Numbered from the stretch's first letter, positions 4,763-49,976 are shown. The stretch is DNA of 64,000 bases from Vulcanimicrobiota bacterium (GCA_963714015.1 OY970223.1:3008001-3072000); one strand, 5' to 3'. The notes: generated from the letters alone by a model not told the origin. Program-made: numbers and translations.

Positions 4763-6306
4763 ATGCAAGTTCGTATCGGCAGCGATGCGCCCGGTTCCGT
4801 TCGTTCGCAAGCGCTGGTGGTGCCGGTGTTTTCTTCCGGCCTCGACGGAGCGGCGCTCACAATCGATACGCAGCTCGAAGGCGCGGTCGGCGAACTGCTG
4901 GCAGCCGGAGAGTTCAAAGGCAAGCTCGCCGAGATTTGTCTGCTGCACGCGCGCGATCGATCGTACAAGCGCGTGGTGCTCGTCGGTTTGGGCGAGGCGG
5001 ACAAATTCGAGCCGTGGATGCTGGCCCGTTACGCCGGTACCGCCGTGCGCTATCTGGGACGGCGCAATGCGCGCGAGATCGCGTTCGCGCTCCCGGCCCA
5101 AGCCAGGGGCTTCGAAGCCGCGGCGGCTTCGTTCATAGTCGAGGGCGCCATTTCGGGAGCGTTCGACACCACGATGTATCAGCAAGAACCTGAAAAGCGA
5201 AGCGGTGCCGACTCGATTGAAATTTTGAGTGAAGGCTTTGATGCCGATGCGCTGCGCGCAGGCGTAACGCGCGGCCGGATTTTGGGTGATGCCGTCAATT
5301 TTGCGCGCCGGATGGCGATTACGCCCGCGAACGACATGACGCCCACGCAACTGGCCGAAGAGGCGACGAGAGCCGCTCGAGACTCCGGCGTGCAAATCGA
5401 GGTTTTCGAAGAAGATCGCTGCCGCCGGGAAGGCATGGGATCGTTCCTCTCCGTCGCGCAGGGCAGCTCGCAGCCTCCCAAATTCATCGTCATGACGTAT
5501 GCCGGCGATCCGTCGAGCAAAGAGCTCTGGCGCTGGTGGGCAAGGGCATTACGTTCGACAGCGGCGGCATCTCGATTAAACCGGCGGATCGCATGGAAGA
5601 GATGAAGTACGACATGTCCGGAGGCGCGGGCGTCATCGCGTCGATGTGTGCGATCGGACAGCTCAAGCCGAAGATCAACGTCGTCGGCATCGTGCCCGCC
5701 ACGGAAAATATGCCCGGCGGCAAGGCAACGAAACCCGGCGACATCTTCAAGGCGATGAACGGCAAAACGATTGAAGTCATCAACACCGACGCGGAAGGCC
5801 GCTTGATTCTGGCCGACGCGCTGTGCTACGCGAATAAGCTCGGCGCGACGAAGATCGTCGACACGGCGACCCTGACCGGCGCGTGCGTCATCGCACTCGG
5901 ACACGCGGCAAGCGCGGCCGTTTCAAACGACGATGCGTTCGCCAATCAGTTTCTCTCCGTTGCAAAATCGACGGGTGAGCGCTACTGGCAGATGCCTCTC
6001 TACGACGACTACGCGAGCGCCATGAAGAGCGACATCGCCGATCTGAAGAACAGCGGCGGCCGCGCCGCCGGAACGCTCACGGCTGCGGCTTTCCTGAAAA
6101 ACTTCGCGGGCGATACGCCTTGGATTCATCTCGACATTGCGGGCACTGCGTATTTGGACAGCGAGTCGGCCTGGCAAGCCAAAGGCCCGACGGGCACACC
6201 GGTTCGCGCGCTGGTCTCACTCGTCGAGCAGCTCAGCGGTTCCAGCGCAATCCACAGCAACGGCGTGAAACCTGCCGCCGTAACGACAACCCCAGTTTCA
6301 TCCTGA
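4763..6306 (+). CDS. pepA: Leucyl aminopeptidase (M17), frameshift near 5528
   Basis: N-half in ORF 4727..5605, C-half in 5536..6306 with GKGITFDSGG, MKYDMSG, NTDAEGRL; single missing base at the junction. Confidence 0.92.
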
Positions 6307-38793: not shown

Positions 38794-39172
38794 TATTTTC
38801 TATAAGCCGCAGCCGGTTTCCGAACGGATCCAGCAGTTGCATCATTCGGCCCCAAGACTCTTTTTTAATGGCCGGACAACCGGGCGGTTTGGCGCCCAGC
38901 TCCGCCTGCAATGCATCTAGACCAGTCATGTGCACAAGCGAAGTCGAGCCCGGCGTTGCATCCCCGTAATGCTCGGAAAGATGAACGGTTAAGCCGTTCC
39001 GCGAGACTTGCATATACAGCGGTAGCCCTGGTTCAAAGCGATGCTCCCAATCGACCGTGCAGCCCAGATAGTCGATATAGAATTCCTTTGCTTTGTCGAT
39101 ATCGAATATCCGGAAGATCGGAATCGTCTTTGAAAATGTTGCAACGGCGGTATCGGCTGTCGAAGTGTTCAT
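38783..39172 (-). CDS. Glyoxalase/bleomycin-resistance (VOC) protein
   Basis: PIFRIFD, VDWEHRF, HLSEHYGD, DPFGNRL. Confidence 0.88.
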   Translation of the reverse strand: MNTSTADTAVATFSKTIPIFRIFDIDKAKEFYIDYLGCTVDWEHRFEPGLPLYMQVSRNGLTVHLSEHYGDATPGSTSLVHMTGLDALQAELGAKPPGCPAIKKESWGRMMQLLDPFGNRLRLIENIDG

Positions 39173-40605
39173 TAGGTGTGATCTCCGTGCATCAGCGGCC
39201 CTTCCACGGGGATACCGTCGAGCAGATGCCCGAGTTTTGCGCGCTTCGTTGCGATATACCGCTTGTTGTGTGCCGTCGGTTCGGTCTGCATCGGAACCCG
39301 TCCGACGATCCGTATCCCATAGCCTTCGAGCCCAAAGATTTTACGCGGGTTATTGGTAAGGACGCGCATCTCCTTAACGCCTAAGTCGGCCAAAATCTGC
39401 GAACCGATTCCGTAATCCCGTTTGTCCACCGGCAGCCCGAGCGCGAGGTTGGCTTCCACCGTATCGGCCCCCTGATCTTGCAGTTGATACGCTCGCAGTT
39501 TGTTGGCCAGGCCGATGCCGCGCCCTTCCTGACGCAAATACAGAAAAATGCCGCGCCCTTCTTTGGCGATGATTTGCATTGCCCCGTCGCGCTGGGCGGC
39601 GCAGTCACAACGCAGCGAATGGAGCGCGTCGCCGGTCAAACATTCGGAGTGAACGCGCACCAGCAAATCTCTGCCGTCGCCGATCTCACCCATGACGAGT
39701 GCGACATGCGTGTTGCGGTCGATGGAATTTTCAAACGCGTAGCCCCGCCACGTTCCGATTTCGGTCGGCAATTGAAACTCCGCGATGCGATGCAGCAGTT
39801 TCTCCGTGCGCCAACGGTATGCAATGAGATCCTTGACCGTAATAAGCCGCACGCCGTGCTTCTTGGCAAAATCGATTAGGCCGTCCAGCCGCTCCATCGT
39901 GCCGTCTTCCGCCATGATCTCGCAAATTACGCCCGCGGGATACAATCCGGCGAGCCGTGCCAGATCGACCGCCGCTTCGGTTTGACCGGCGCGAACCAGC
40001 ACGCCGCCCTCGCGAGCACGCAGCGGAAAGGTGTGACCGGGTCGCAGCAGATCCGACGGACGTGTTGCCGAATCGAGCAGCGCTTGAATCGTCGCCGATC
40101 GATCGTGTGCCGAAATTCCTGTCGTCGTGCGCCCGCGCGCTTCAACCGAAACGGTGAACGCCGTTTCGTGCACGGCGCTGTTTTCGGAAACCATTTGCGG
40201 CAAATGGAGCTCGTCGAGTCGCCGGCCCGTCATCGGAACGCAGATCAAACCGCCCGCGTACTTGCGCATGAAGTTGATAGCTTCGGGCGTGACCATCTGC
40301 GCGGCCATAACGAGGTCGCCTTCGTTTTCGCGATCCTCGTCGTCGAGCACGATGACCATCTTGCCGGCACGAACGTCTTTGATCGCCTCCTCAATCGAGT
40401 CGAAAGGCGATGCCTTTTCCAGCGAATTGGTCAGGTCGGGCAAGACCTGAGTCAGCCGCTGCAAAGAGCGGTAGGACGGCTCACGCTGCCCGGACCGAAG
40501 GTACGAAATCGCAGCCTCCGTTAGCCCGCTGCGCTCAGCCAGGTCCGCGGCGTTAAGGCCTGCGGCTTCCATAGCCGTATTCAATTCCTCAGCAAAGGGA
40601 CTCAC
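39172..40605 (-). CDS. ribBA: XRE-HTH domain fused to bifunctional DHBP synthase/GTP cyclohydrolase II
   Basis: DDEDRENEGD, RVHSECLTGD, CDC, QEGRGIGL, LTNNPRK; N-terminal ~60 aa LAERSGLTEAAISYLRSGQREP. Confidence 0.95.
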   Translation of the reverse strand: MSPFAEELNTAMEAAGLNAADLAERSGLTEAAISYLRSGQREPSYRSLQRLTQVLPDLTNSLEKASPFDSIEEAIKDVRAGKMVIVLDDEDRENEGDLVMAAQMVTPEAINFMRKYAGGLICVPMTGRRLDELHLPQMVSENSAVHETAFTVSVEARGRTTTGISAHDRSATIQALLDSATRPSDLLRPGHTFPLRAREGGVLVRAGQTEAAVDLARLAGLYPAGVICEIMAEDGTMERLDGLIDFAKKHGVRLITVKDLIAYRWRTEKLLHRIAEFQLPTEIGTWRGYAFENSIDRNTHVALVMGEIGDGRDLLVRVHSECLTGDALHSLRCDCAAQRDGAMQIIAKEGRGIFLYLRQEGRGIGLANKLRAYQLQDQGADTVEANLALGLPVDKRDYGIGSQILADLGVKEMRVLTNNPRKIFGLEGYGIRIVGRVPMQTEPTAHNKRYIATKRAKLGHLLDGIPVEGPLMHGDHT

Positions 40606-40611
40606 GGGCCC

Positions 40612-40641
40612 AGCTTACGCCGCGAACTTAACAACTGTCAA
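40612..40641 (-). promoter_or_regulatory. Putative leaderless ribBA promoter TTGACA-N18-TAAGCT
   Basis: -35 at 40641..40636 spans the target/IS-end junction; -10 at 40617..40612 lies 6 nt before the GTG. Confidence 0.6.
40631..40638 (+). repeat. 8-bp target repeat ACAACTGT, copy 1
   Basis: Identical copies at 42708, 47243 and 49853, each abutting IS terminal repeats. Confidence 0.9.
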
Positions 40642-40690
40642 GGTAACATACTTGGCTCACCAGGGGCCTGGTGTCTGGTAGGATAGAGAG

Positions 40691-41685
40691 ATGGCCCGCG
40701 CTCGCTTCCACGGTTTGCTTGCGGAGATGGAAGACCGACTCGGCGGAAACTACAATTCCGCGCTCCTCGCAGCCATTCTCGCGGTTGCCCCAATGTTCGT
40801 GGTGGCGATGATTCATTCTGCGCTCGCTTGGCGCTGTCTTGAGTCGTTTTGGGTCGCACTAGTTCTAATTTTGCTAGCACGGGTCTTCCGAGTACAAGTT
40901 CGCGTAGCCCTATTGGGTGGTCTTCTCTGGCTTTGCGGTACGCTGGGCAATTTTTGTGCTACCTCCGGTGTCATCGGGTGAAGTGAGTGCCCCTATTCCC
41001 TATCCAACCCCAATGCTGCAAACATGGGACGGAGTTTACTCTGGTTGGGCAACAGAGCGCGGAGCCAAGTTGCCATACTGGGCGGTAAATCTGTGTCTAG
41101 CCAATTTTGGGAATGAAGATGTCAAGGTAGTGACATACGAGACTTCTAAATTAGATTGGAATTATCGCGACGATCCCACGAAAGTGCGGCCGGTAGTGGA
41201 CAAGATGAGGGCGTCACTCGCTGTTCAAGAGGAAAGGGCGGAACACGCCTGGCCCGAGATTTATCATCCCGATGACCCACGATTACTATCCTGTTCGCAA
41301 AGGTTGGGATATTTCAGAAGACATCCGAGACCATTTTACTGGCACGCACTATATTCAGGTACATTCCGATCACGTAGTAGGGCGCGACGAGCAAATGCAA
41401 ATAATGGCTCAGTACAGAATCCTCTACTACGATGTGGATTTTGTAGAAACGAATTCGCGTGGTATGACCACCTGGAACGCTTGCGGAATCGTGGAGTGGC
41501 AAGGCAGTACAACCCCGTGTCCGGAGGCGGGGGTTAAAAAAGTGAACGACGATATTGACGGCGACGAAGCCATGAGGCGGTTTGAAGAACTCGGGACTAA
41601 ATTGTTCCAAATCAAGAAAGACCACGTTGAGGAAATCACTGAGGGGGAACCTGATGACTACTCGAGCCGGAGCCCGGATGAGTAG
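40691..41685 (+). CDS. Passenger hypothetical membrane protein(s), frameshifted over ORFs 40691..40981, 40917..41537 and 41272..41685
   Basis: Lower-GC overlapping ORFs; 3 TM segments at the N-terminus; exact gene number unclear. Confidence 0.5.
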
Positions 41686-42638
41686 TCCGCAGAGCCGCGT
41701 TCTCGTTCTTCAATTCGCGATAGGTTACGCGCCGTCCGTCCGTATTCTTCAGCACGGCCACGAACCGCTCCGCGTCGTTCCCCTCGCGGGCGTTGAAGCG
41801 GAATACTTGCTCGTCAAGGTAGCGGTCTCAGATGGAACGGACGCGGGCAAATGTAGGTCCCTTTAATGGTCCGCTTCAGGCAGCTCCAGAAGTTCTCGAT
41901 ATTGTTCGTATGCACGCTTTCCGTCAACGTACCGAACCGAGTGGTCAACGAACTTATGCAGGTAGCGAATAGTCCAGCATCCGGTAGGAGCGCAGCGCAT
42001 CGGTGAACACTTGGAACCCGGTTCGACGTTCTGATAAATCTTCGGAAGCAGTACCGCGGCGCGATGGTTCGGAACGACCATAGCCTTCACGCGGCTTTTG
42101 CCTTTTTCTTCGGCGCGTTGCACCATGCCGAACACCGTCGTCTTTCCGGTGCCGGTCCGTGTTTGAGTTTGCGGAAGCCGCTCTTGGAAAAGTAGTTCGT
42201 GCGTACCTTACCGCCGACGAATGTTTCGTCCGCTTCAACTGTACCGGAGAACGCCGCGCCAACGCCGTCTTTCATGGATTCGCGGATGCGATGGAACATG
42301 AACCACGCCGTCTTTTGCGTGACACCCAGGGCGCGGTCCAGTTCACACGACGAGGTTCCGTTCTTCGTGTTTGCCAGGAGCCAAATTGCCGGAAGCCACT
42401 TGGTAAACGAAATCGGACTGTCCTCAAAAATCGTCCCAACCTTGACCGAGAACTGCCGTTTGCACTCTTTGCAGCGCCACATTTTGCGAGTCTTGAGGAA
42501 TTGGACGGACGCCGATCCGCAACCCATGCGCGGGCACGCGATGCCGTTCGGCCAGCGCAATTTAACCGCGTATTCGAACGCCCGCTCGGGGTCCGAGAAG
42601 AAGGTGACTGCCTCGATAAGCGTAGTCGGCGTGTCCAT
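41636..42638 (-). CDS. IS1595 family transposase (several frameshifts)
   Basis: Zn ribbon CPRMGC...CKEC, FSVKVGTIFEDS, GVTQKTAW, VEADETFVGG, TD, NNIENFWS, YLDEQVFRFN. Confidence 0.93.
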
Positions 42639-42707
42639 GCTTTAACGGTATACTCGAGGGTGTTCCACCAGTGTGGCACTGTGAGGTGAGCCAAGTATAT
42701 TAGCTTG

Positions 42708-42715
42708 ACAACTGT
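42708..42715 (+). repeat. 8-bp target repeat ACAACTGT, copy 2
   Basis: Lies between unit 1 right IR and unit 2 left IR. Confidence 0.9.
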
Positions 42716-42780
42716 CAAGATGATATACCTATTGCGGCTTTGCCCATTTCCGGCGAGTTGCACAAAGCGCTAAAGCGTGG

Positions 42781-43185
42781 CTATTGGTGCAGTAGCACGA
42801 TGGCAATCACGGCGTAAAGGCTCAGAACGACGCCACCTAGCGGTATCGCGAGTTTAAGACGAGGATTCGCCGGAACACTGGTCACCCGTGGAAAGGCATA
42901 CGCGAAGTAAGCCCACAGCGCAAGGCTAACGAGTGCTAAAGCAAGGCGCTCAGTCCTTCCAAGCACGGTTAGCCTGTGCACTTTCGGTAATCGATCTGAA
43001 GCCCCCAGATCGCCGATCTCGCATTGCCTGCGCCCAACCTCGTCTTGCAAGCGCAGAGAACGCTCGATCGCGGCCGCCAGGTTATCCTCGGCCTCGGTCG
43101 GCGTCGGCCCAAAGGCCACAATCTCGCGACCTGCGCCCTGCCCCCTGGCGTGGTAGCCGCCCGCAACCTGCAGTAGAGTAGCCAT
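42781..43185 (-). CDS. Hypothetical protein; N-terminus weakly HicB-like, C-terminus 2 TM
   Basis: IVAFGPTPTEAEDNLAAAIE resembles the HicB-type beta-alpha motif; possibly chimeric. Confidence 0.4.
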   Translation of the reverse strand: MATLLQVAGGYHARGQGAGREIVAFGPTPTEAEDNLAAAIERSLRLQDEVGRRQCEIGDLGASDRLPKVHRLTVLGRTERLALALVSLALWAYFAYAFPRVTSVPANPRLKLAIPLGGVVLSLYAVIAIVLLHQ

Positions 43186-43230
43186 GGTCCAAATTATCCC
43201 ACGCCGTAGCGTTACGTGGCAAATAACTTA

Positions 43231-43455
43231 ATGCGGCGGGAAGGCGACCACGCGGAGCGGTTCTATACTGTGCTGAAGAACACGGACGGCCATCGCGTTA
43301 TGTATCGCACCTTGAAGGCGGAAAACCCGAACCTGCGTGTTATGCATCCTCGGATATCTCGCCCGAATCTCGCCCGCGTCGTCCTCGATAATTTCCCGGT
43401 TATCGTCGTTCTTGCGAACGATTTTGCCGAGCAGGGTTTTCGAAGTTCTCCATAG
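43231..43455 (+). pseudogene. IS1595 transposase C-terminal remnant
   Basis: REGDHAERFYTVLKNTDGHRVMYRTLKAENPNLR aligns with unit-1 transposase tail REGNDAERFVAVLKNTDGRRVTYRELKNENAALR. Confidence 0.85.
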
Positions 43456-43479
43456 CCTCGTCGCCGTTTACGTCGTCAT

Positions 43480-44314
43480 TCATAGCAAGTCCAACGCTTC
43501 ATCTGCCAGTTTGCCACCAAGGATTGTCGCCCACGCATCTAGCGCTTTCGCCATGGCTTGTACCGTTTTTGACGTTAATATTTGCCCCGCAATTATTTCG
43601 TGTGTTAGGTCCGTACTGCTTAAGCCATATCTTGACATCATATCGGTAACAATTCTTACGACCTTGGGCCTCACCTTGTCAAATTCGGTATTATCCACGG
43701 TAGTGCTCTCGAGCCATTCCTCAATTATTTCGCGCCCCGTCAGCCCTTTACGCTGCGATTTATGCAGCGTCATGTTATTCACGAACGATTCTAACATTGC
43801 AGAGACGCGCTTTATGCGTGTGTAGTCCGAAGCGAGGGGTGCAATGCGCGACCATTTCTCCGCGCTAATCTGCAAGTCGTTAACCCGCCCCACTAATTTG
43901 TCGTTTTCTAGCGATGCCTCTACCCAGCCATCCGATAACGCATCAGCCTCGGCCTTTAGACCCTCAGTTTTCGTACGCTCCTGTCGGACGATGCTCAATG
44001 GTGTCCTGCAATTTACTTTGGACACCGAGTGACTAAACGAATCAGTAGCCTGCGATGCGGTCGCCGACAAGGACAGGTCCTTTACTTGCGCGTCGTGCCA
44101 CCACAGCAATAGGCCGACCATAAGAAAAAGTGGAGATGAAATCTTGGACTTGCGCCACAAAGTGTCCCAGTTCGGTGTGCGCGTTATAATTCAGCGATGC
44201 CTGGACGGCGTTCTCGTGGTCGATTGCGTCCCATATTCTCCAGGCCCAACCCAGACCAGATATGACGAGCGTTGCAATCGTCGGCCTAGACGGACGCCAC
44301 ACTTTAGAGAACAT
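43480..44314 (-). CDS. Passenger hypothetical membrane/coiled-coil protein (frameshifted)
   Basis: ORFs 44042..44314 and 43480..44160; lower GC; TM segments. Confidence 0.5.
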
Positions 44315-44661
44315 CCAGATCGTTTGCGCCGTGAGCGCGACTGATCATTTTGTGACCCTCGATGAGACCAAGGCTGGACTGAAAAAAGCGCCCTCCTTAC
44401 CCTATTAGGGCATTGGTGCCTCAGGTGGCTTTGCACATCAAAGGGCGGCTGCACATAAAATACGCTGCTTGCACATAAAACCGAGCCGCTGCAATTAGGA
44501 ACAGTTTATTTCGTCCGTACGCTTGCAAAGCATGGTATATTTGCGCCATGTTGCCGCGACGGTGGTCGCGGGCAGGGAGTAAAGGGCTCCCCACCCGCAT
44601 CCTCCATCGGGGACGGTCGGAAGCTCCAGGGGTTCCGATCTCGCGCTCCAGGAGGAAAACT

Positions 44662-44808
44662 CTACTCCGGTTTTGGCGCACGACGAGGTGTGTTCCAATA
44701 CGGACTTTTGCACTTCGGGCAAACCATCGGGTCCTGCGACTTGTCCCGAGGCAGCCATTCGTGCCCGCATCGGTCGCACCGATAGCCGGACAGTTTCACC
44801 TTCGCCAT
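44662..44808 (-). CDS. 48-aa zinc-ribbon protein (not in ORF track)
   Basis: MAKVKLSGYRCDRCGHEWLPRDKSQDPMVCPKCKSPYWNTPRRAPKPE; TTGACG-N18-TATACT promoter 6 nt upstream. Confidence 0.85.
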   Translation of the reverse strand: MAKVKLSGYRCDRCGHEWLPRDKSQDPMVCPKCKSPYWNTPRRAPKPE

Positions 44809-44814
44809 TCCCGT

Positions 44815-44907
44815 AGTATATACCCACTAGTCTCATACCGTCAATATACCCCCTGGTAGGTTGACTCTGCGCTATCCCTTGTGGTATATTCTCTTTAGGA
44901 ATATACG
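44815..44907. promoter_or_regulatory. Divergent sigma70 promoters with repeated ATATAC(C) motifs
   Basis: Minus: TTGACG(44844..44839)-N18-TATACT; plus: TTGACT(44861)-N18-TATATT; GTATATTC-N7-GAATATAC palindrome at 44884..44906. Confidence 0.7.
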
Positions 44908-44920
44908 AAGGGGTACGAAG

Positions 44921-46141
44921 ATGGAAGCACGGGAACAGCGCGGGCTCGAAATCGCAGCCACCAAGAAACTCGAAAAGTCCGGCCAGAAGTGGCTTGTCCC
45001 ATCCTCCACCGGATCGGGCACGTACGTTGTCGATCCCACCGTCTACGGGCCGGCGACCTGCACTTGTCCCGACTACGAGCTGCACCAAGAGCCGTGCAAA
45101 CACGTCTACGCGGTCGAGTTTACGATCCGACGCGAAACGACGGCCAAGGACGGTACCGTGACGACCGAAACGATCACGTACCGCCAGGAATGGGCCGCGT
45201 ACAATGCGGCACAGGGCAATGAGAAGGTCCGCGTTGCGGAGTTGCTTCGCGAACTGTGCGGCGCAATCGACAACCCACTCCAAAAGCGCGGTCGTCCGCG
45301 TCTGCCGCTCTCCGATCGCGATCTTCTGCGCCGTGATGAAGGTTTACGGCGGAATGTCCGCCCGCCGCTCGGCTTTGCGACCTGAACGACTTTGCCGCTC
45401 GCGGCTTCATCGACAAAGCGCCGCACTTCAATTCCGTTCTCAACGCCCTCGAAAATCCCGATGTAACGGCCATCCTCAAGAACATGATTGAGGAAAGCGC
45501 CGCTCCGCTCGTGACGCTGGAAACGGACTTTGCGGCCGATTCCTCCGGCTTCACGCCCACGACCTATGCCCGGTGGTTCGACGCGAAGTACGGGCGCGAA
45601 ATGACCAAGCACCATTGGCTCAAGGCGCATATCACCGTCGGAACCCGCACGAACATCGTTACGGCGGTCGAAGTCACGGACTACAACGTCCACGATTGCC
45701 CCGTACTGCCCGACCTGCTCAACACGACCGCCAAGCGGTTTACGATGGAGCGCGTTTCGGCCGATAAAGGCTACCTGTCCGATGCGAACGTCCGCGCTAT
45801 CCACTCGCACGGCGCGGTCGCCTTCATCCCGCCGAAAGTCCAACAGCCGTTTCGGCCCCATGCCCGACGCAAGCCGCAAGCGTTCCGACGTATGGCACAA
45901 AATGTTCCACTACTACGCTTTCAAGCGCGACGAGTTTCTGCGCCATTACCATCGGCGGAGCAACGTCGAAACGACATTCCACATGATCAAATCCAAGTTC
46001 GGCAGCCGTATCCGCTCGAAAACGCCTATCGCGCAGACGAACGAAGTTCTCGCGAAGGTCCTGTGCCACAACCTGTGCGTACTCGTTCAGTCCGCGTATG
46101 AACTCGGGATCGAATCGACGTTCTGGAAGCAAACGGCGTGA
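44921..46141 (+). CDS. Transposase: N-terminal SWIM zinc finger plus DDE_Tnp_1-like core (frameshifts near 45315, 45375, 45838)
   Basis: CTCPD...CKH (SWIM); FAADSSGF, ADKGY, YHRRSNVETTFHMIK (D-D-E, YREK-like). Confidence 0.9.
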
Positions 46142-46169
46142 CAGGTCTGAGGTCTTTGGAGGTCCCGAC

Positions 46170-47021
46170 ATGATCCCTATAATCCTGGTGCTAGCCATGG
46201 GTAGTACACCAACCGCGGCTTACGATTTGCCAAGGATCGAGCACCGGTACGCTATAGCCGAAGATAATCAGCGCGATCCCCAAACCCGCAACACCGCCGC
46301 CCAACATTCGGCGGCGAGGGAGCAGATCAACACCAACCCACAGGACTGCTCCTCCGCCGACAATCAAAACACAGCACAGTGCGAGGACGCTAAGAATAAC
46401 CAAAGAATCGCTGTCGCAAACGAGCACATGGTTACTCTCACTATTGTTATCGCTGCTGTTGGCGTTATGCAAACGCTTGCTCTCGTTCTTACGTTGGTAG
46501 CCACCCGAAAGGCGGCGAACGCTACGGCTAAGAGCGTTGACCTTTCCGAACGGTCGCTGAAGATCACTGAGCGTGCACACCTTCAGGTGAGCCAGATTGA
46601 GGTGCGGAGCGGCTTGACGAGTGGGAACATCCCCCGGATCGTAGTGTCGATTGCGAACCGAGGAAGGACACCAGGAACTATAGTAAGCAGTGTTTTTAAA
46701 TTTCAAATCTTCGACACAATTCCAGAATCGCCAACCTTTGATGGCGAGACTCCCAATCAGGTTTTGGTTGGTCCTGGGAACACCGAGACGTCCGATATTA
46801 TGACGCAACACGCCGTCACAACGGACGAGATCGAAGCGATAAAGGCTGCGAAAAAGCAGTTGGTCGTCTGGGGCAGAGTGTTCTATCTCGACGTGTTCGG
46901 GGACCGCCACGAAATGCGGTTTGGGTGCGCGATGAAAATGCACGATCATACCCCGGGCACTCAGGACTATAGGGTGACGTTCAAACAGTTGGTTGGTGAA
47001 GATTACAATCGGGCCGACTAA
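46170..47021 (+). CDS. Passenger hypothetical membrane-anchored protein
   Basis: GGAGG RBS, signal-like N-terminus, one TM, beta-rich C-terminus. Confidence 0.7.
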   Translation: MIPIILVLAMGSTPTAAYDLPRIEHRYAIAEDNQRDPQTRNTAAQHSAAREQINTNPQDCSSADNQNTAQCEDAKNNQRIAVANEHMVTLTIVIAAVGVMQTLALVLTLVATRKAANATAKSVDLSERSLKITERAHLQVSQIEVRSGLTSGNIPRIVVSIANRGRTPGTIVSSVFKFQIFDTIPESPTFDGETPNQVLVGPGNTETSDIMTQHAVTTDEIEAIKAAKKQLVVWGRVFYLDVFGDRHEMRFGCAMKMHDHTPGTQDYRVTFKQLVGEDYNRAD

Positions 47022-47117
47022 CGCGAGAGCAGGTATTTTTCCGGTATGCTGAACTTGCGAACCGACCGCTCTTGAGCCATGCCCTGCGGTAACGGGTTGA
47101 CGCTCACGGGCTACGGA

Positions 47118-47144
47118 GGGGATCGGGGAATCCGGTCCCCTTTT
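47118..47144 (+). terminator. Intrinsic terminator inside the IS right end
   Basis: GGGGATCGG-GGAAT-CCGGTCCCC-TTTT. Confidence 0.65.
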
Positions 47145-47242
47145 CGTTTGCTGAGAGGCCGCACATAAAATCGGCAGGCTGCACAAAAAACACGCCCCCA
47201 GGAGCAATAAATGTGCAAAGCCGCCTCAGGTATATCATCTTG

Positions 47243-47250
47243 ACAACTGT
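47243..47250 (+). repeat. 8-bp target repeat ACAACTGT, copy 3
   Basis: Lies between unit 2 and unit 3 IRs. Confidence 0.9.
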
Positions 47251-47304
47251 CAAGGTACCGTACCTAAGGCGGCTTTGCACAAAAAGGCACTTTTGGGGCT
47301 GCTT

Positions 47305-47570
47305 TTATATGTTGAGCAGGTCGGGGAGTACGGGGCAATCGTTGACGTTGTAGTCCGTGACTTCGACCGCCGTAACGATGTTGGTACGGGTTCCGACGTT
47401 AACATGCGCCTTGAGCCAATGGTGTTTGGTCATTTCGCGCCCGTACTTGGCATCGAACCAGCGGGCATACGTCGTGGGCGTGAAGCCGGAAGAATCGGCA
47501 GCGAAGTCTGTTTCCAGGGTCGCGAGCGGAGCGGCGCTTTCCTCAATCATTCTCTTGAGGATGGCCGAAG
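47305..47570 (-). pseudogene. Fragment of a second SWIM-DDE transposase copy
   Basis: AILKRMIEESAAPLATLETDFAADSSGF...CPVLPDLLN, near-identical to about 45470..45723; adjacent to IR GGCGGCTTTGCAC at 47268. Confidence 0.9.
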
Positions 47571-47591
47571 TGCGACCAGCGCTGCAGCCAG

Positions 47592-49268
47592 TTACGCGCT
47601 TGGCAGTGTCTGCAATGGTGAAGTCAGCGTAAGCAGCGCGTATGCGCTGCCGGTGCGATACGTGAGAAGTGCAAGCGTTTCGGTCTCTTCCGGCAAGTAA
47701 TGCGTGCGATCGCGCTTGGGACCACAGATGACAAAGCCGATAAGTTCCGCACGCGCGGTCATCGGCAGCAGCAGTGATCCACGCAATGGATGTGCGGGCT
47801 CGTCGCATTCGAACGGTTCGTGCCAACGCCGCAAACGCAGCACTGCAAAATCGTGAGACGGCAGAATGGAAGGTGTGGGGGCGCTTGGCGTCGCGAGCGC
47901 ATACGCCGACCCGTCGGCCGTGTAGATCGCGACGAAGTCGCTCTCGAGGCGTTGACGCAGCGCCTCGTATGTCTGCAACAACAAGTATTTCGGGTCTGAA
48001 ATAAGGTCGGTCTCCTGCGCGAAGCGCCGTAACGCTTGCATCGCCGCCGTTTGCGAACGGAAGATGATTCGGTTGAGGAATCCTTCGATACGGCGATGAG
48101 CATGCGTGAGGACGACGCCGATGAATACCGCGAGCAGCAACTCCGCGGCGAGAGCGAAACGTGACTCTTCGAGCCATCTGCCGAAGCCCCAATCCACCAG
48201 AGCGAGCAGGGCGATCGTGATTGACGTGATGGTACCGTACAACAGTGCGCGGCTGACCACGAATCGGATGTCGAACAAGCGGTGGCGCAGGATCGTGTAG
48301 GCCAAGGCAATCGGCGCGAGCAGCATCCACGCTTGTGCAAGGTTGATATACGAAACTTCCGCGTAAATGCCGAACATGGGCGCGAGAATATTGTCGATGA
48401 CGATCGAGGGTAAAAACGCGACGGCGAAGGACAGCACAACCCAGCGCAGCCGATTACGGCGCGCTTCATCAGCCTGAACGTATCTGGCGATCAAAATCAC
48501 GATGGCGACGACGTAGATGCTGTTGAGCACGGCGCCGTACACCGTCCAATACGCGGTCGGAGCTCGCGCTCCGGAGACCACCAGCACGACCATCGGAATC
48601 AGCAAGGCAAGCCATACCGCGGGCACAAAAAACGCGATGAGCGCACGTTCGAGTAGCGCTCCGGCGCCGCGCGGCGTTGAATCGGGAAACCGCAGCGCGA
48701 ACGAGACAAAGCCAGCTGCCGATGCCGGAAGCGCAATCGACACGATGAGAGTGACGAGATACTGGGCCGCAGGGTATTCGAGAATCAGTGTGCCGACGAG
48801 GCAAAAGTTGTAGAGAAACGCGTAAAAGGCCCACGTGACGGGGCTCGGCCGGAAGAGCACGAGCGCGGCGGCGAGCAAAATGGCCGCCCACAGTGATACT
48901 ACCGCGATATAATCCGTGACGTTGTCGATGGCCGTTCGACCGAACGGATGCGAACGTAATGTCACGAGCCTGCCCGAACTGAGCGGAAGAGTTATAACGG
49001 CTCCGTCGGGTGCACCGGCATCGTAGCCCAGCGTTAGTGAGGCGCGACCGGTGGGGGATAGGCGACGCATGTCGATGACGTCACCGGCCCGCAAGCCTGC
49101 TCTCGATGCTTGCGCATCCACCGAGGTAATGTAACCGTTCTGCCCCGCGCCAAAGCCGTATGTCGAATACGGATGCCAGGGCAGAAGCAGATCTCCGCCG
49201 TTGGCGAGCAGCGAAGCGGCGGTAAGAACGACAATGAAGACAGTCCGGATGACTGCCCGCGTGTCCAT
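47592..49268 (-). CDS. Multi-pass membrane sensor-like protein (PDZ-like loop, C-terminal GAF-like domain)
   Basis: ASRAGLRAGDVI, multiple TMs, AYTILRHRLFDI, LIGFVICGPK...YLPEE. Confidence 0.75.
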   Translation of the reverse strand: MDTRAVIRTVFIVVLTAASLLANGGDLLLPWHPYSTYGFGAGQNGYITSVDAQASRAGLRAGDVIDMRRLSPTGRASLTLGYDAGAPDGAVITLPLSSGRLVTLRSHPFGRTAIDNVTDYIAVVSLWAAILLAAALVLFRPSPVTWAFYAFLYNFCLVGTLILEYPAAQYLVTLIVSIALPASAAGFVSFALRFPDSTPRGAGALLERALIAFFVPAVWLALLIPMVVLVVSGARAPTAYWTVYGAVLNSIYVVAIVILIARYVQADEARRNRLRWVVLSFAVAFLPSIVIDNILAPMFGIYAEVSYINLAQAWMLLAPIALAYTILRHRLFDIRFVVSRALLYGTITSITIALLALVDWGFGRWLEESRFALAAELLLAVFIGVVLTHAHRRIEGFLNRIIFRSQTAAMQALRRFAQETDLISDPKYLLLQTYEALRQRLESDFVAIYTADGSAYALATPSAPTPSILPSHDFAVLRLRRWHEPFECDEPAHPLRGSLLLPMTARAELIGFVICGPKRDRTHYLPEETETLALLTYRTGSAYALLTLTSPLQTLPSA

Positions 49269-49344
49269 CCTCGCAGAACTTCGTGCTCCGACATACCTTC
49301 CCCGCTGCGCAGGAATCGCGCTTTCCGCAACGTCGCCGGCGCGA

Positions 49345-49790
49345 GAGTAGAGCGATACGCACGGGGCGATCGTCGGCGATATTCCCAACACGCCGGGCGT
49401 GCACGGCATCGCACTTGCACCCGAACTCGGCAAGGGCTTTACGTCGAACGGTTCCGACGGCGCGGTAACGGTGTTCGATTTGAATTCGCTCAAACCCATG
49501 ACGACGATTCAAACGGGTGCCAAGGGGCCGGACGGCATCGTGTACGACCCCGCCAATAAGCGCGTGCTGACGTTCAACGGCGAGAGCAACGACGCGACCG
49601 CCAGCGACGCGCAAAACGACCGCGTCGTGGCGACGATTCCGCTTGGCGGACGACCGGAGTTTCCTGTCGCGGACGGCAAAGGCATGGTGTACGACAACAT
49701 CGAGAGCACGAGCGAAATCGTCGCGATTGACACGTCGAGCGCGGCAATCGTCGATCGCCGGAGTTTGGGAAGTTGCCAAAGCCTGTCGGG
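49345..49790 (+). pseudogene. YncE/YVTN beta-propeller gene fragment
   Basis: GVHGIALAPELGKGFTSNG, PDGIVYDP, GGRPEF; no signal peptide and truncated before the IR. Confidence 0.75.
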
Positions 49791-49852
49791 CAAACCCATT
49801 CGAGGCCTCGCCTTGGCAGCCTCGGTCAAGGTGAGTCAGGTATATCACCCCG

Positions 49853-49860
49853 ACAACTGT
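49853..49860 (+). repeat. 8-bp target repeat ACAACTGT, copy 4
   Basis: Followed by another IR-like end CAAAGTGGCCGTACC-TGA-GGGGCTTGCACAT (unit 4, right end not found). Confidence 0.88.
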
Positions 49861-49976
49861 CAAAGTGGCCGTACCTGAGGGGCTTGCACATGAATCGACG
49901 CTTGCAATAAAATCGAGCCGCCGCAATGAAGGCGAGAATGCCACCCGTGTGGCGCCGTTCCGAGTAGTATTTTCCC

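Follow-up and report, generated by a model that had tools for sequence, protein, structure and literature searches.

An insertion sequence inside the terminal repeat of another transposon raises the question of what, exactly, it has recognized. Site-specific insertion sequences with a DDE transposase are uncommon, and their choice of site is mostly unexplained. Here we consider a 64,000-nucleotide stretch of the genome of a Vulcanimicrobiota bacterium (GCA_963714015.1 OY970223.1:3008001-3072000; hereafter the window), in which an element whose transposase joins a SWIM zinc finger to a DDE_Tnp_1 catalytic domain (hereafter the SWIM element) interrupts the inverted repeat of an IS1595-type transposon, and in which further SWIM-element ends abut other copies of that repeat. 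An earlier note, made from this sequence alone, proposed that the SWIM element is a dedicated parasite or hitch-hiker of IS1595 ends. Comparison with related genomes suggests a different answer: the apparent target is a 16-base palindrome that the tips of the IS1595-type element copy from a conserved site upstream of ribBA, a riboflavin gene. We give a probability of roughly 0.75 to the reading that the nest was built on this one conserved palindrome, CTTAACA-NN-TGTCAAG, targeted by two unrelated transposons.

In the mechanism that we propose, an IS1595-type element would insert at the dyad of the palindrome and duplicate the central 2 bp. Its tips would be half-sites, such that the full palindrome is rebuilt at both junctions and further copies can pile up tip to tip. 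Members of a SWIM clade that encode a DDE transposase and a 48-amino-acid zinc-ribbon protein would insert 16 nt from the start of the TGTCAAG heptamer and generate a 5-bp duplication, the center of which lies approximately 20 bp, or about two helical turns, from the dyad; the sequence that is cut would be irrelevant. The palindrome would be read by a protein, which may be the SWIM region, the zinc-ribbon protein or a host factor.

The SWIM element and its ends in the window

The full copy of the SWIM element and its parts are as follows.

44420..44424: target duplication CTCAG, left copy; GGTGC before it is the inner end of the repeat that is interrupted
44425..47224, + strand: full copy of the SWIM/DDE insertion sequence (2800 bp), each end of which has subterminal GCACATAAAA repeats
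44662..44808, - strand: 48-amino-acid zinc-ribbon open reading frame (ORF; CxxC...CxxC), divergent from the transposase gene
44921..46141, + strand: SWIM and DDE_Tnp_1 transposase gene, in frames 2, 0, 1 and 2
46098..47021, + strand: 307-amino-acid cargo ORF, no family match
47225..47229: target duplication CTCAG, right copy

The terminal inverted repeats are GTGGCTTTGCACAT and GCGGCTTTGCACAT, and the ends were set two bases before the GGCTTTGC motif, as in relatives. The earlier note had placed a complete 2802-bp element with a 3-bp TCA duplication at 44424..47225. One full element is indeed present there, and its bounds shift inward to 44425-47224. In 80 loci of relatives with ends set by GGCTTTGC, exact 5-bp direct repeats were found in 16, and all insertions among the family genomes for which both ends could be seen also have 5-bp duplications. 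These relatives favor the pentamer CTCAG as the better reading of the duplication in the window; both parses give the same empty site. In silico excision leaves GGTGC-CTCAG-GTATATCATCTTGACA, a 26-bp IS1595-type inverted repeat that aligns with the intact 26-bp repeats at 42685-42710 and 49830-49855 and, reversed, with that at 40636-40661, in agreement with the earlier note. By blastn against the 3.56-Mb genome, the full copy is the only one, accompanied by an inverted, 92% identical 258-bp transposase fragment at 47310-47567.

The ends are complete, but the transposase frame is broken by at least three frameshifts (near 45320, 45375 and 45820-45890). The pieces match Pfam SWIM (1e-08) and DDE_Tnp_1 (PF01609; 7.1e-17 and 3.6e-08), and align to a full-length relative, P0001 (DDE_Tnp_1 at 2.9e-26), in three separate matches covering amino acids 1-132, 151-325 and 298-404. 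Copies in G136 and G122 have open transposase frames, of 418 or 437 amino acids. The IS1595 transposase of the window has frame breaks as well, and the completeness score of the single-contig genome is only 89.6%; the frameshifts in both transposase genes (41690-42638 and 44921-46141) may therefore be assembly indel errors, as an alternative to decay. The 48-amino-acid ORF gave 49 tblastn matches in 44 loci of the element family from many phyla, usually located approximately 100-250 bp upstream of the transposase gene; it matches Pfam Zn_ribbon_8 at 8.7e-6, which is under that model's cut-off. The spacer between this ORF and the transposase gene (44810-44920) contains several TATATACC, AATATACC, GGTATAT and AATATAC motifs similar to GATATACC of the IS1595 repeat interior, a resemblance that may be coincidental or reflect -10-like boxes.

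Three more ends of SWIM elements adjoin other copies of the repeat, at 42734, 47269 and 49880.

42729..42775, + strand: junction A, pentamer CTATT (42729-42733), then SWIM end stub GCGGCTTTGCCCATTT..., 16 nt after TGTCAAG
47239..47254: palindrome P3, CTTGACA-AC-TGTCAAG, with SWIM ends on both arms at mirror positions
47264..47567, - strand: junction B-right, pentamer CTAAG (47264-47268), right-end stub from 47269, inverted transposase fragment 47310-47567
49875..49960, + strand: junction C, pentamer CTGAG (49875-49879), left-end-like stub GGGGCTTGCACAT..., 17 nt after the heptamer

The earlier note had seen these three ends and described them as having the same inverted repeat at the same offset (listed as 14, 14 and 15 bp). 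Those at 42734 and 47269 lie 16 nt after the start of TGTCAAG, the same as the full copy on the opposite arm; that at 49880 is shifted by 1 nt, being 17 nt from the heptamer. They also differ in kind. The stub at 49880 is left-end-like, that at 47269 represents a right end that has lost internal sequence and is followed by the inverted transposase piece, and that at 42734 is right-end-like on weak evidence.

A fixed distance from a conserved palindrome

The chromosomal neighbor of the nest is a gene for RibBA with an added helix-turn-helix (HTH) domain.

39172..40605, - strand: HTH(XRE)-RibBA gene, conserved chromosomal neighbor of the target palindrome
40627..40642: palindrome P1, CTTAACA-AC-TGTCAAG, the left half chromosomal and the right half the tip of IS1595-type unit 1

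The product combines Pfam HTH_3 (amino acids 11-55) with DHBP_synthase and GTP_cyclohydro2, and matches NCBIfam PRK09311 at 2e-188. A 541-base stretch comprising the 5' part of ribBA and ending in the palindrome has matches in 115 of 121 genomes from this bacterial family. The native palindrome lies 22-37 nt upstream of the HTH-ribBA start codon and looks like an auto-operator. Of 26 aligned loci of relatives, 24 have it in this position, as CTT[A/G/T]ACA-NN-TGTCAA[G/C]; it is followed there by no mobile DNA in 10 (one of them, L130, from a genome flagged unpublished), by an intact IS1595-type repeat in six and by a SWIM-element end in five. Allowing at most one mismatch, there are three palindrome sites in the 3.56-Mb single-contig genome, all in this region, compared with 108 sites for the bare heptamer. 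The recurrence of SWIM-element ends at these repeats is far beyond chance. A close match to the repeat at genome position 2324785 proved to be a chance match within other sequence.

How the SWIM element is positioned relative to the heptamer was assessed by scanning 301 genomes of the family for TGTCAAG-N(6-28)-GGCTTTGC. The scan returned 31 matches: 21 with a gap of 16, two with a gap of 17, one with a gap of 23 and seven scattered, against a background of approximately 0.35 matches per other spacing. The full palindrome is present in 19 of the 21, another is at a contig start, and the last (G323), with no palindrome and an atypical end, looks like chance. None of the seven scattered matches has either the palindrome or a typical element end. 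An initial search with the junction pattern GCAAAGCCNNCTNAGGTA (one mismatch, 401 genomes of the phylum) gave mostly chance matches, with similar control counts, and real ones only in G000 (the genome of the window), G191 and G157.

IS1595-type repeats are hit 16 nt from the tip in approximately 19 genomes belonging to about 14 genera. Both copies of the duplication are present in G000 (CTCAG), G191 (CTGAG), G122 (ATGAG), G244 (CGCTT) and G202 (CTGAC), and the pentamers within IS1595 repeats vary (CTGTG, CTATT, ACTGA, GACAC, ACCAG, ATGAG). The duplication spans +18 to +22 from the dyad, its first base being 16 nt after the heptamer start. Either end of the element can face the palindrome: the left end does so in G136, G210 and window junction C, and the right end in G043, G113, G122, G191 and window junctions B-left and B-right.

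This offset also recurs in loci devoid of IS1595 sequence. In eight genomes, the SWIM element lies 16 nt from the heptamer in native DNA, and in four of these both 5-bp duplications are intact, with the pentamer next to the palindrome repeated at the far end of the element:

G136: TGTCAAG-CCGCCCTTG-[TCGTC]
G043: TGTCAAG-TTTTCAGGG-[GCCGG]
G113: TGTCAAC-CGCTTCGGT-[GTCGC]
G373: TGTCAAG-CCACTCAGT-[TGGCA], a 320-bp miniature element

The additional native cases are G226, G382, G059 and G159. Insertion in native DNA at the same offset argues that the determinant is the palindrome that IS1595 tips recreate, and not the interior of the IS1595 repeat. Insertion occurs at a set distance from the sequence that appears to be recognized, and the cut pentamers are unrelated. 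The sequences thus show, for the SWIM element, a fixed offset, indifference to the cut sequence, use of either arm and either orientation, a 5-bp duplication (2 bp for the IS1595 type, below) and recurrence across genera. The native palindrome had no SWIM insertions on its ribBA side, as would be expected if insertion there parted the gene from its start region. We infer that the targeted positions are tolerated because they leave the ribBA start region intact.

Independence of the insertions

Several lines of evidence support INDEPENDENCE of insertions and point to separate events. The paired pentamer copies are the same within a genome and different among genomes, the repeat adjoining ribBA is intact in G000 and G148 and interrupted in G210, G157 and G122, and the end sequences at the junctions belong to different element lineages. 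In G202 (L206, reverse strand, first 900 nt), a 780-bp miniature and a second element are in tandem with one shared pentamer, CTGAC. Likewise, tandem elements at L071:2029-5727 are separated only by a shared 5-bp duplication, TCCTA. The tandems in L071 and G202 indicate either that one pentamer was hit more than once or that the elements are tandem multimers. Overall, we count several events (four or more in native DNA, five or more in repeats) and not one event per genome, because kin are not independent.

Some junctions are more elaborate. In G253 (L149), G401 (L150) and G118 (L198), a pentamer, a short remnant and the pentamer again precede the element, such as CTATT-GCCC-CTATT or CTGAC-GCAT-CTGAC, and these may be excision footprints followed by re-insertion. 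At L111:7053-7112 (G191), a 37-bp tandem target duplication, from the heptamer to CCTTTA and with two bases given as N, lies just before the element.

The IS1595-type element as a probable source of targets

The mobile-DNA pile of the window contains four IS1595-type units, with the spacer AC throughout.

40.6-51.6 kb: mobile-DNA pile, adjoining the HTH-RibBA gene
40636..42710, - strand: IS1595-type unit 1, 2075 bp, with 26-bp inverted repeats at 40636-40661 and 42685-42710
40691-41685, + strand: unannotated ORFs inside unit 1
42638 down to approximately 41690, - strand: unit 1 transposase, frameshifted
42704..42719: palindrome P2, CTTGACA-AC-TGTCAAG, abutted tips of units 1 and 2
42713..47245: IS1595-type unit 2, degenerate, with SWIM elements in both of its repeats
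47248-49855: IS1595-type unit 3, separated from its neighbors by AC
49830..49864: degenerate fourth palindrome, consisting of the 26-bp repeat GGTGAGTCAGGTATATCACCCCGACA, AC and TGTCAAA
From 49858: IS1595-type unit 4, after AC

Unit 1 is single copy in the genome. The frameshifted pieces of its transposase match Zn_ribbon_IS1595 at 1.6e-12 and, weakly, DDE_Tnp_IS1595 at 9.4e-4; an intact relative in L034, 51% identical, matches Zn_ribbon_IS1595 at 4.4e-43, DDE_Tnp_IS1595 at 1.1e-12 and NCBIfam transpos_IS1595 at 5e-56. Transposase homologues of this type are found in 68 of the 301 genomes.

The 26-bp inverted repeats start with TGTCAAG, and the tips TGTCAAG...CTTGACA are half-sites of the palindrome. 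Among the 29 best homologue loci, 11 have the repeat flanked by a half-site and two bases, and these 11 are the closest to the copy in the window. The junction dinucleotides are identical within genomes and different between them: AA on both sides in G148, GT on both sides in G433, AC four times in G000, AC twice in G053 and TC twice in G118. Furthermore, the half-site beyond the element in G148 is TGTCAAC, as opposed to TGTCAAG at its own tip, and matches the empty site of G208. The simplest reading of these sequences is that the IS1595-type element inserts at the dyad with a 2-bp duplication, its tips being half-sites. Because the tips copy the half-sites, every such insertion would regenerate the palindrome at its junctions, which would lead to the AC-spaced array of the window; and because the tips multiply the palindrome, most SWIM insertions would be found within IS1595 repeats. 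The IS1595 family is usually listed with 8-bp target duplications. The element described here resembles that family in its zinc ribbon and ISXO2-like DDE domain, but differs in having a duplication of 2 bp. A literature search at title and abstract level found no description of an IS1595 dyad target.

Within the array, part of unit 1 recurs inside unit 2 at 43237-43482, inverted and diverged. Unit 3 (47592-49878) lacks an IS1595 transposase and carries a 635-amino-acid ORF with a faint GAF match only, and a beta-propeller-like ORF is interrupted by the IS1595-type repeat at 49830; the content of this unit looks like chromosomal DNA that was captured or rearranged. On its right side, the island has an edge that was not placed to the nucleotide, and synteny with relatives is back near 52.0 kb.

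The wider SWIM/DDE family

Proteins of approximately 400 amino acids with both SWIM and DDE_Tnp_1 domains numbered 651, at E <= 1e-10, among 1478 candidates. Among reference genomes, 593 of 612 stretches were confirmed, and 80 loci were kept. These loci come from many phyla; in none of them does the element interrupt an IS1595 repeat, and the ribBA palindrome is present in only one (L042). Searching the 80 loci by tblastn for IS1595 transposases identified L034 and L055 only. Neither of them represents targeting: the IS1595 element of L034 lies approximately 670 bp from the SWIM end, and in L055 a different IS1595 element (4872-5948; repeats ATGGCTCATGATGGATTCCGGGGTGGTG) is inside the SWIM element, a reverse nesting that has no connection with the targeting. 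Looking for inverted repeats in general around the 80 relatives yielded largely noise, and ends were found through GGCTTTGC instead.

Several of these relatives use recognizable sites of other kinds. Distant relatives at L053:2457/6399, L047:2374/5901 and L006:2381/7489 lie in the loops of G/C-rich hairpins, such as CCCCTTCCCC-AAG-GGGGAAGGGG, with the 5-bp duplication centered on the dyad. In two genomes (L002:2740-2800 and L038:5330-5390), elements in opposite orientations lie 5 nt from paired ARG-box-like palindromes located approximately 45 nt upstream of argF, which is followed by argR and argG. L007:2300-2360 and L046:5630-5690 have homologous flanks and the same pentamer with opposite orientations, and the L007 flank has a TTGAC-palindrome upstream of a YHS/heavy-metal-binding gene. 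Other relatives have GTATAC repeats next to them, in front of either a type III polyketide synthase-like gene or a gene for an S8 peptidase. The elements are 2.1-5.1 kb long among these relatives, with a length of approximately 8 kb also seen elsewhere, and their cargo is variable. Our literature search, again at title and abstract level, found no description of a SWIM-bearing IS5-like family.

Weighing the alternatives

If the SWIM element instead recognized the interior of the IS1595 repeat (ATAC-CTNAG-G) as a dedicated parasite of IS1595 ends, it would be natural that approximately 19 of the 27 or so junction-bearing genomes have the junction inside an IS1595-type repeat, that the cut pentamer of the window falls within a small palindrome, CCTNAGG, and that TAC-CTGAG is retained at window junction C and at the junction on contig 60 of G157 despite a different distance from the tip. 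Recurrent targeting of an exact position in IS1595 repeats, as the earlier note described it, is borne out by independent insertions in those genomes; what changes is the determinant, given the native cases that have no repeat interior. Eight genomes use the same offset next to unrelated native bases (CCGCCCTTG, TTTTCAGGG, CGCTTCGGT, CCACTCAGT and others), with native pentamers such as TCGTC, GCCGG, GTCGC and TGGCA, and the pentamers inside the repeats vary too. In addition, none of the 80 relatives is in an IS1595 repeat; the more distant relatives use other sites, and therefore the family is not a dedicated IS1595 parasite. We regard recognition of the repeat interior as improbable. Two explanations need no targeting of IS1595 ends or of the palindrome, and to both we give very little credence. 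All junctions could trace back to a single old insertion that duplication or rearrangement multiplied within the window and that passed vertically among genomes: the junctions of the window are all within 7 kb, inverted copies (arms I3 and I5) include element ends, and the congeneric G136 and G226 share the pentamer TCGTC. Against such descent, a possibility that the earlier note had itself raised, stand the two orientations, the paired pentamers that agree within each genome and differ among genomes, the different element lineages, the ribBA-side repeat that is intact in some genomes and interrupted in others, and the tandem in G202. Random insertion that survives only at a harmless intergenic spot would fit a site that is intergenic, upstream of the ribBA start region and free of insertions on the ribBA side, yet selection cannot account for precision to the nucleotide, with 21 of the 31 matches sharing one spacing, for the mirror hits on both arms of P3 or for the re-use of a pentamer in G202.

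More evenly matched are the ways in which the palindrome could be read. The SWIM transposase and the 48-amino-acid protein may themselves be the reader and integrate two helical turns away, as a compact Tn7-like attachment-site system whose site the IS1595-type element multiplies; we hold this tentatively, and place it slightly ahead of a protein already bound to the palindrome. Such a protein, either RibBA through its HTH domain or the IS1595 transposase at the tips of its own element, would mark or bend the DNA and the SWIM transposase would attack beside it. Conservation of the palindrome before a gene for a protein with an N-terminal HTH domain is consistent with this, as are relatives beside other operator-like repeats (the argF-argR boxes and the TTGAC-palindrome, two genomes each), but the distances to those other palindromes depart from the 16-nt rule and some relatives lie in the loops of plain hairpin repeats, and we consider it rather unlikely.

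Several observations weigh against the palindrome as the sole determinant, or limit what can be read from the counts. Window junction C and G118 are at 17 nt, G059 is at 16 or 17, and the junction on contig 60 of G157 is at 23 nt with no upstream palindrome, yet ATAC-CTGAG is kept; there is therefore room for a contribution of the repeat interior. Every genuine case has both half-sites, and thus the heptamer and the full palindrome are inseparable. In the bacterial family to which the window belongs, a transposase was matched in 16 of 121 genomes, of which seven (G000 included) have it at the ribBA locus; seven others, among them the unpublished G212, hold the transposase elsewhere or on unplaced contigs, and the remaining two matches are only 29% identical. 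A consensus promoter scan called no promoter at the palindrome, and for that reason the tolerance of the position stays something we infer. Finally, the genomes are kin and mostly metagenome bins, so that independent events are fewer than genomes, and assemblies tend to break at repeats.

Comparison with known systems

IS5 subgroups have duplications of 2-4, 8 or 9 bp. Like IS5 elements, the SWIM clade has a DDE_Tnp_1 catalytic domain and short terminal inverted repeats, and the best NCBIfam model is transpos_IS5_2. Unlike them, its proteins score below the 140-bit cut-off of that model (P0001 at 130.7 and P0005 at 132.5 bits) and are less than 30% identical to named plasmid-borne IS5 elements, the nearest named being ISAs4 and ISPko1; the clade has an N-terminal SWIM finger, a divergent 48-amino-acid gene, variable cargo and site specificity. 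Its 5-bp duplication may also set it apart from the IS5 subgroups. The link drawn earlier between TNA duplications and certain IS5 subgroups does not hold for this element, whose duplication is 5 bp long and has no constant sequence.

IS4321 and IS5075, of the IS1111 group, target one fixed position within the 38-bp repeats of Tn21-type transposons. The SWIM element similarly recurs at a fixed position of another element's terminal repeat. IS1111/IS110 targeting involves a DEDD transposase and an RNA guide (PMC11187229). Compared with the IS1111 type, the SWIM enzyme is of the DDE_Tnp_1 and not the DEDD type, both orientations occur and the same offset is used outside transposon ends.

The IS1595-type element is reminiscent of IS30, which prefers palindromic hot spots and its own abutted repeats and makes a 2-bp duplication: its target also resembles its own joined tips, with a 2-bp duplication and tip-to-tip arrays. 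It differs in its transposase, which consists of Zn_ribbon_IS1595 and DDE_Tnp_IS1595. IS1397 and ISKpn1, of the IS3 family, insert in the loops of repetitive extragenic palindromic sequences, much as the distant SWIM relatives L053, L047 and L006 sit in hairpin loops. In the window, by contrast, the cut is 18-22 nt from the dyad and outside the palindrome, and the transposase family is another. Through TnsD and attTn7, Tn7 inserts at a set distance from a recognized sequence at a conserved gene. The fixed offset from a conserved site beside a housekeeping gene and the indifference to the cut sequence are alike; the SWIM element differs in having no TnsABC-like machinery, only a transposase and the 48-amino-acid protein, in its free orientation and in the short palindrome that appears to be its site. 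In its behavior, the SWIM element unites the repeat-targeting of the IS1111 group, the palindrome-targeting of IS1397 and the set-distance insertion of Tn7, with an enzyme type and a rule that differ from each. The earlier note knew of no description of the pairing of SWIM and IS1595 elements, and our search of titles and abstracts found none.

Implications

The insertions form a natural series, in which at least nine cases with both ends, in different genomes, share one nucleotide offset while the cut sequence varies. Because the offset is single and the cut sequence free, the target rule is directly testable with a two-gene element. In practical terms, elements of this kind should be delimited with a 5-bp and not a 3-bp duplication, and the IS1595 type gains a member with a 2-bp duplication and a dyad target. 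One element can create targets for another, which explains the pile-up of nested transposons at a putative housekeeping promoter. Should the SWIM element prove to be its own reader of the palindrome, it may be of interest for small site-directed integration tools, and two transposon families would be coupled through one piece of host regulatory DNA.

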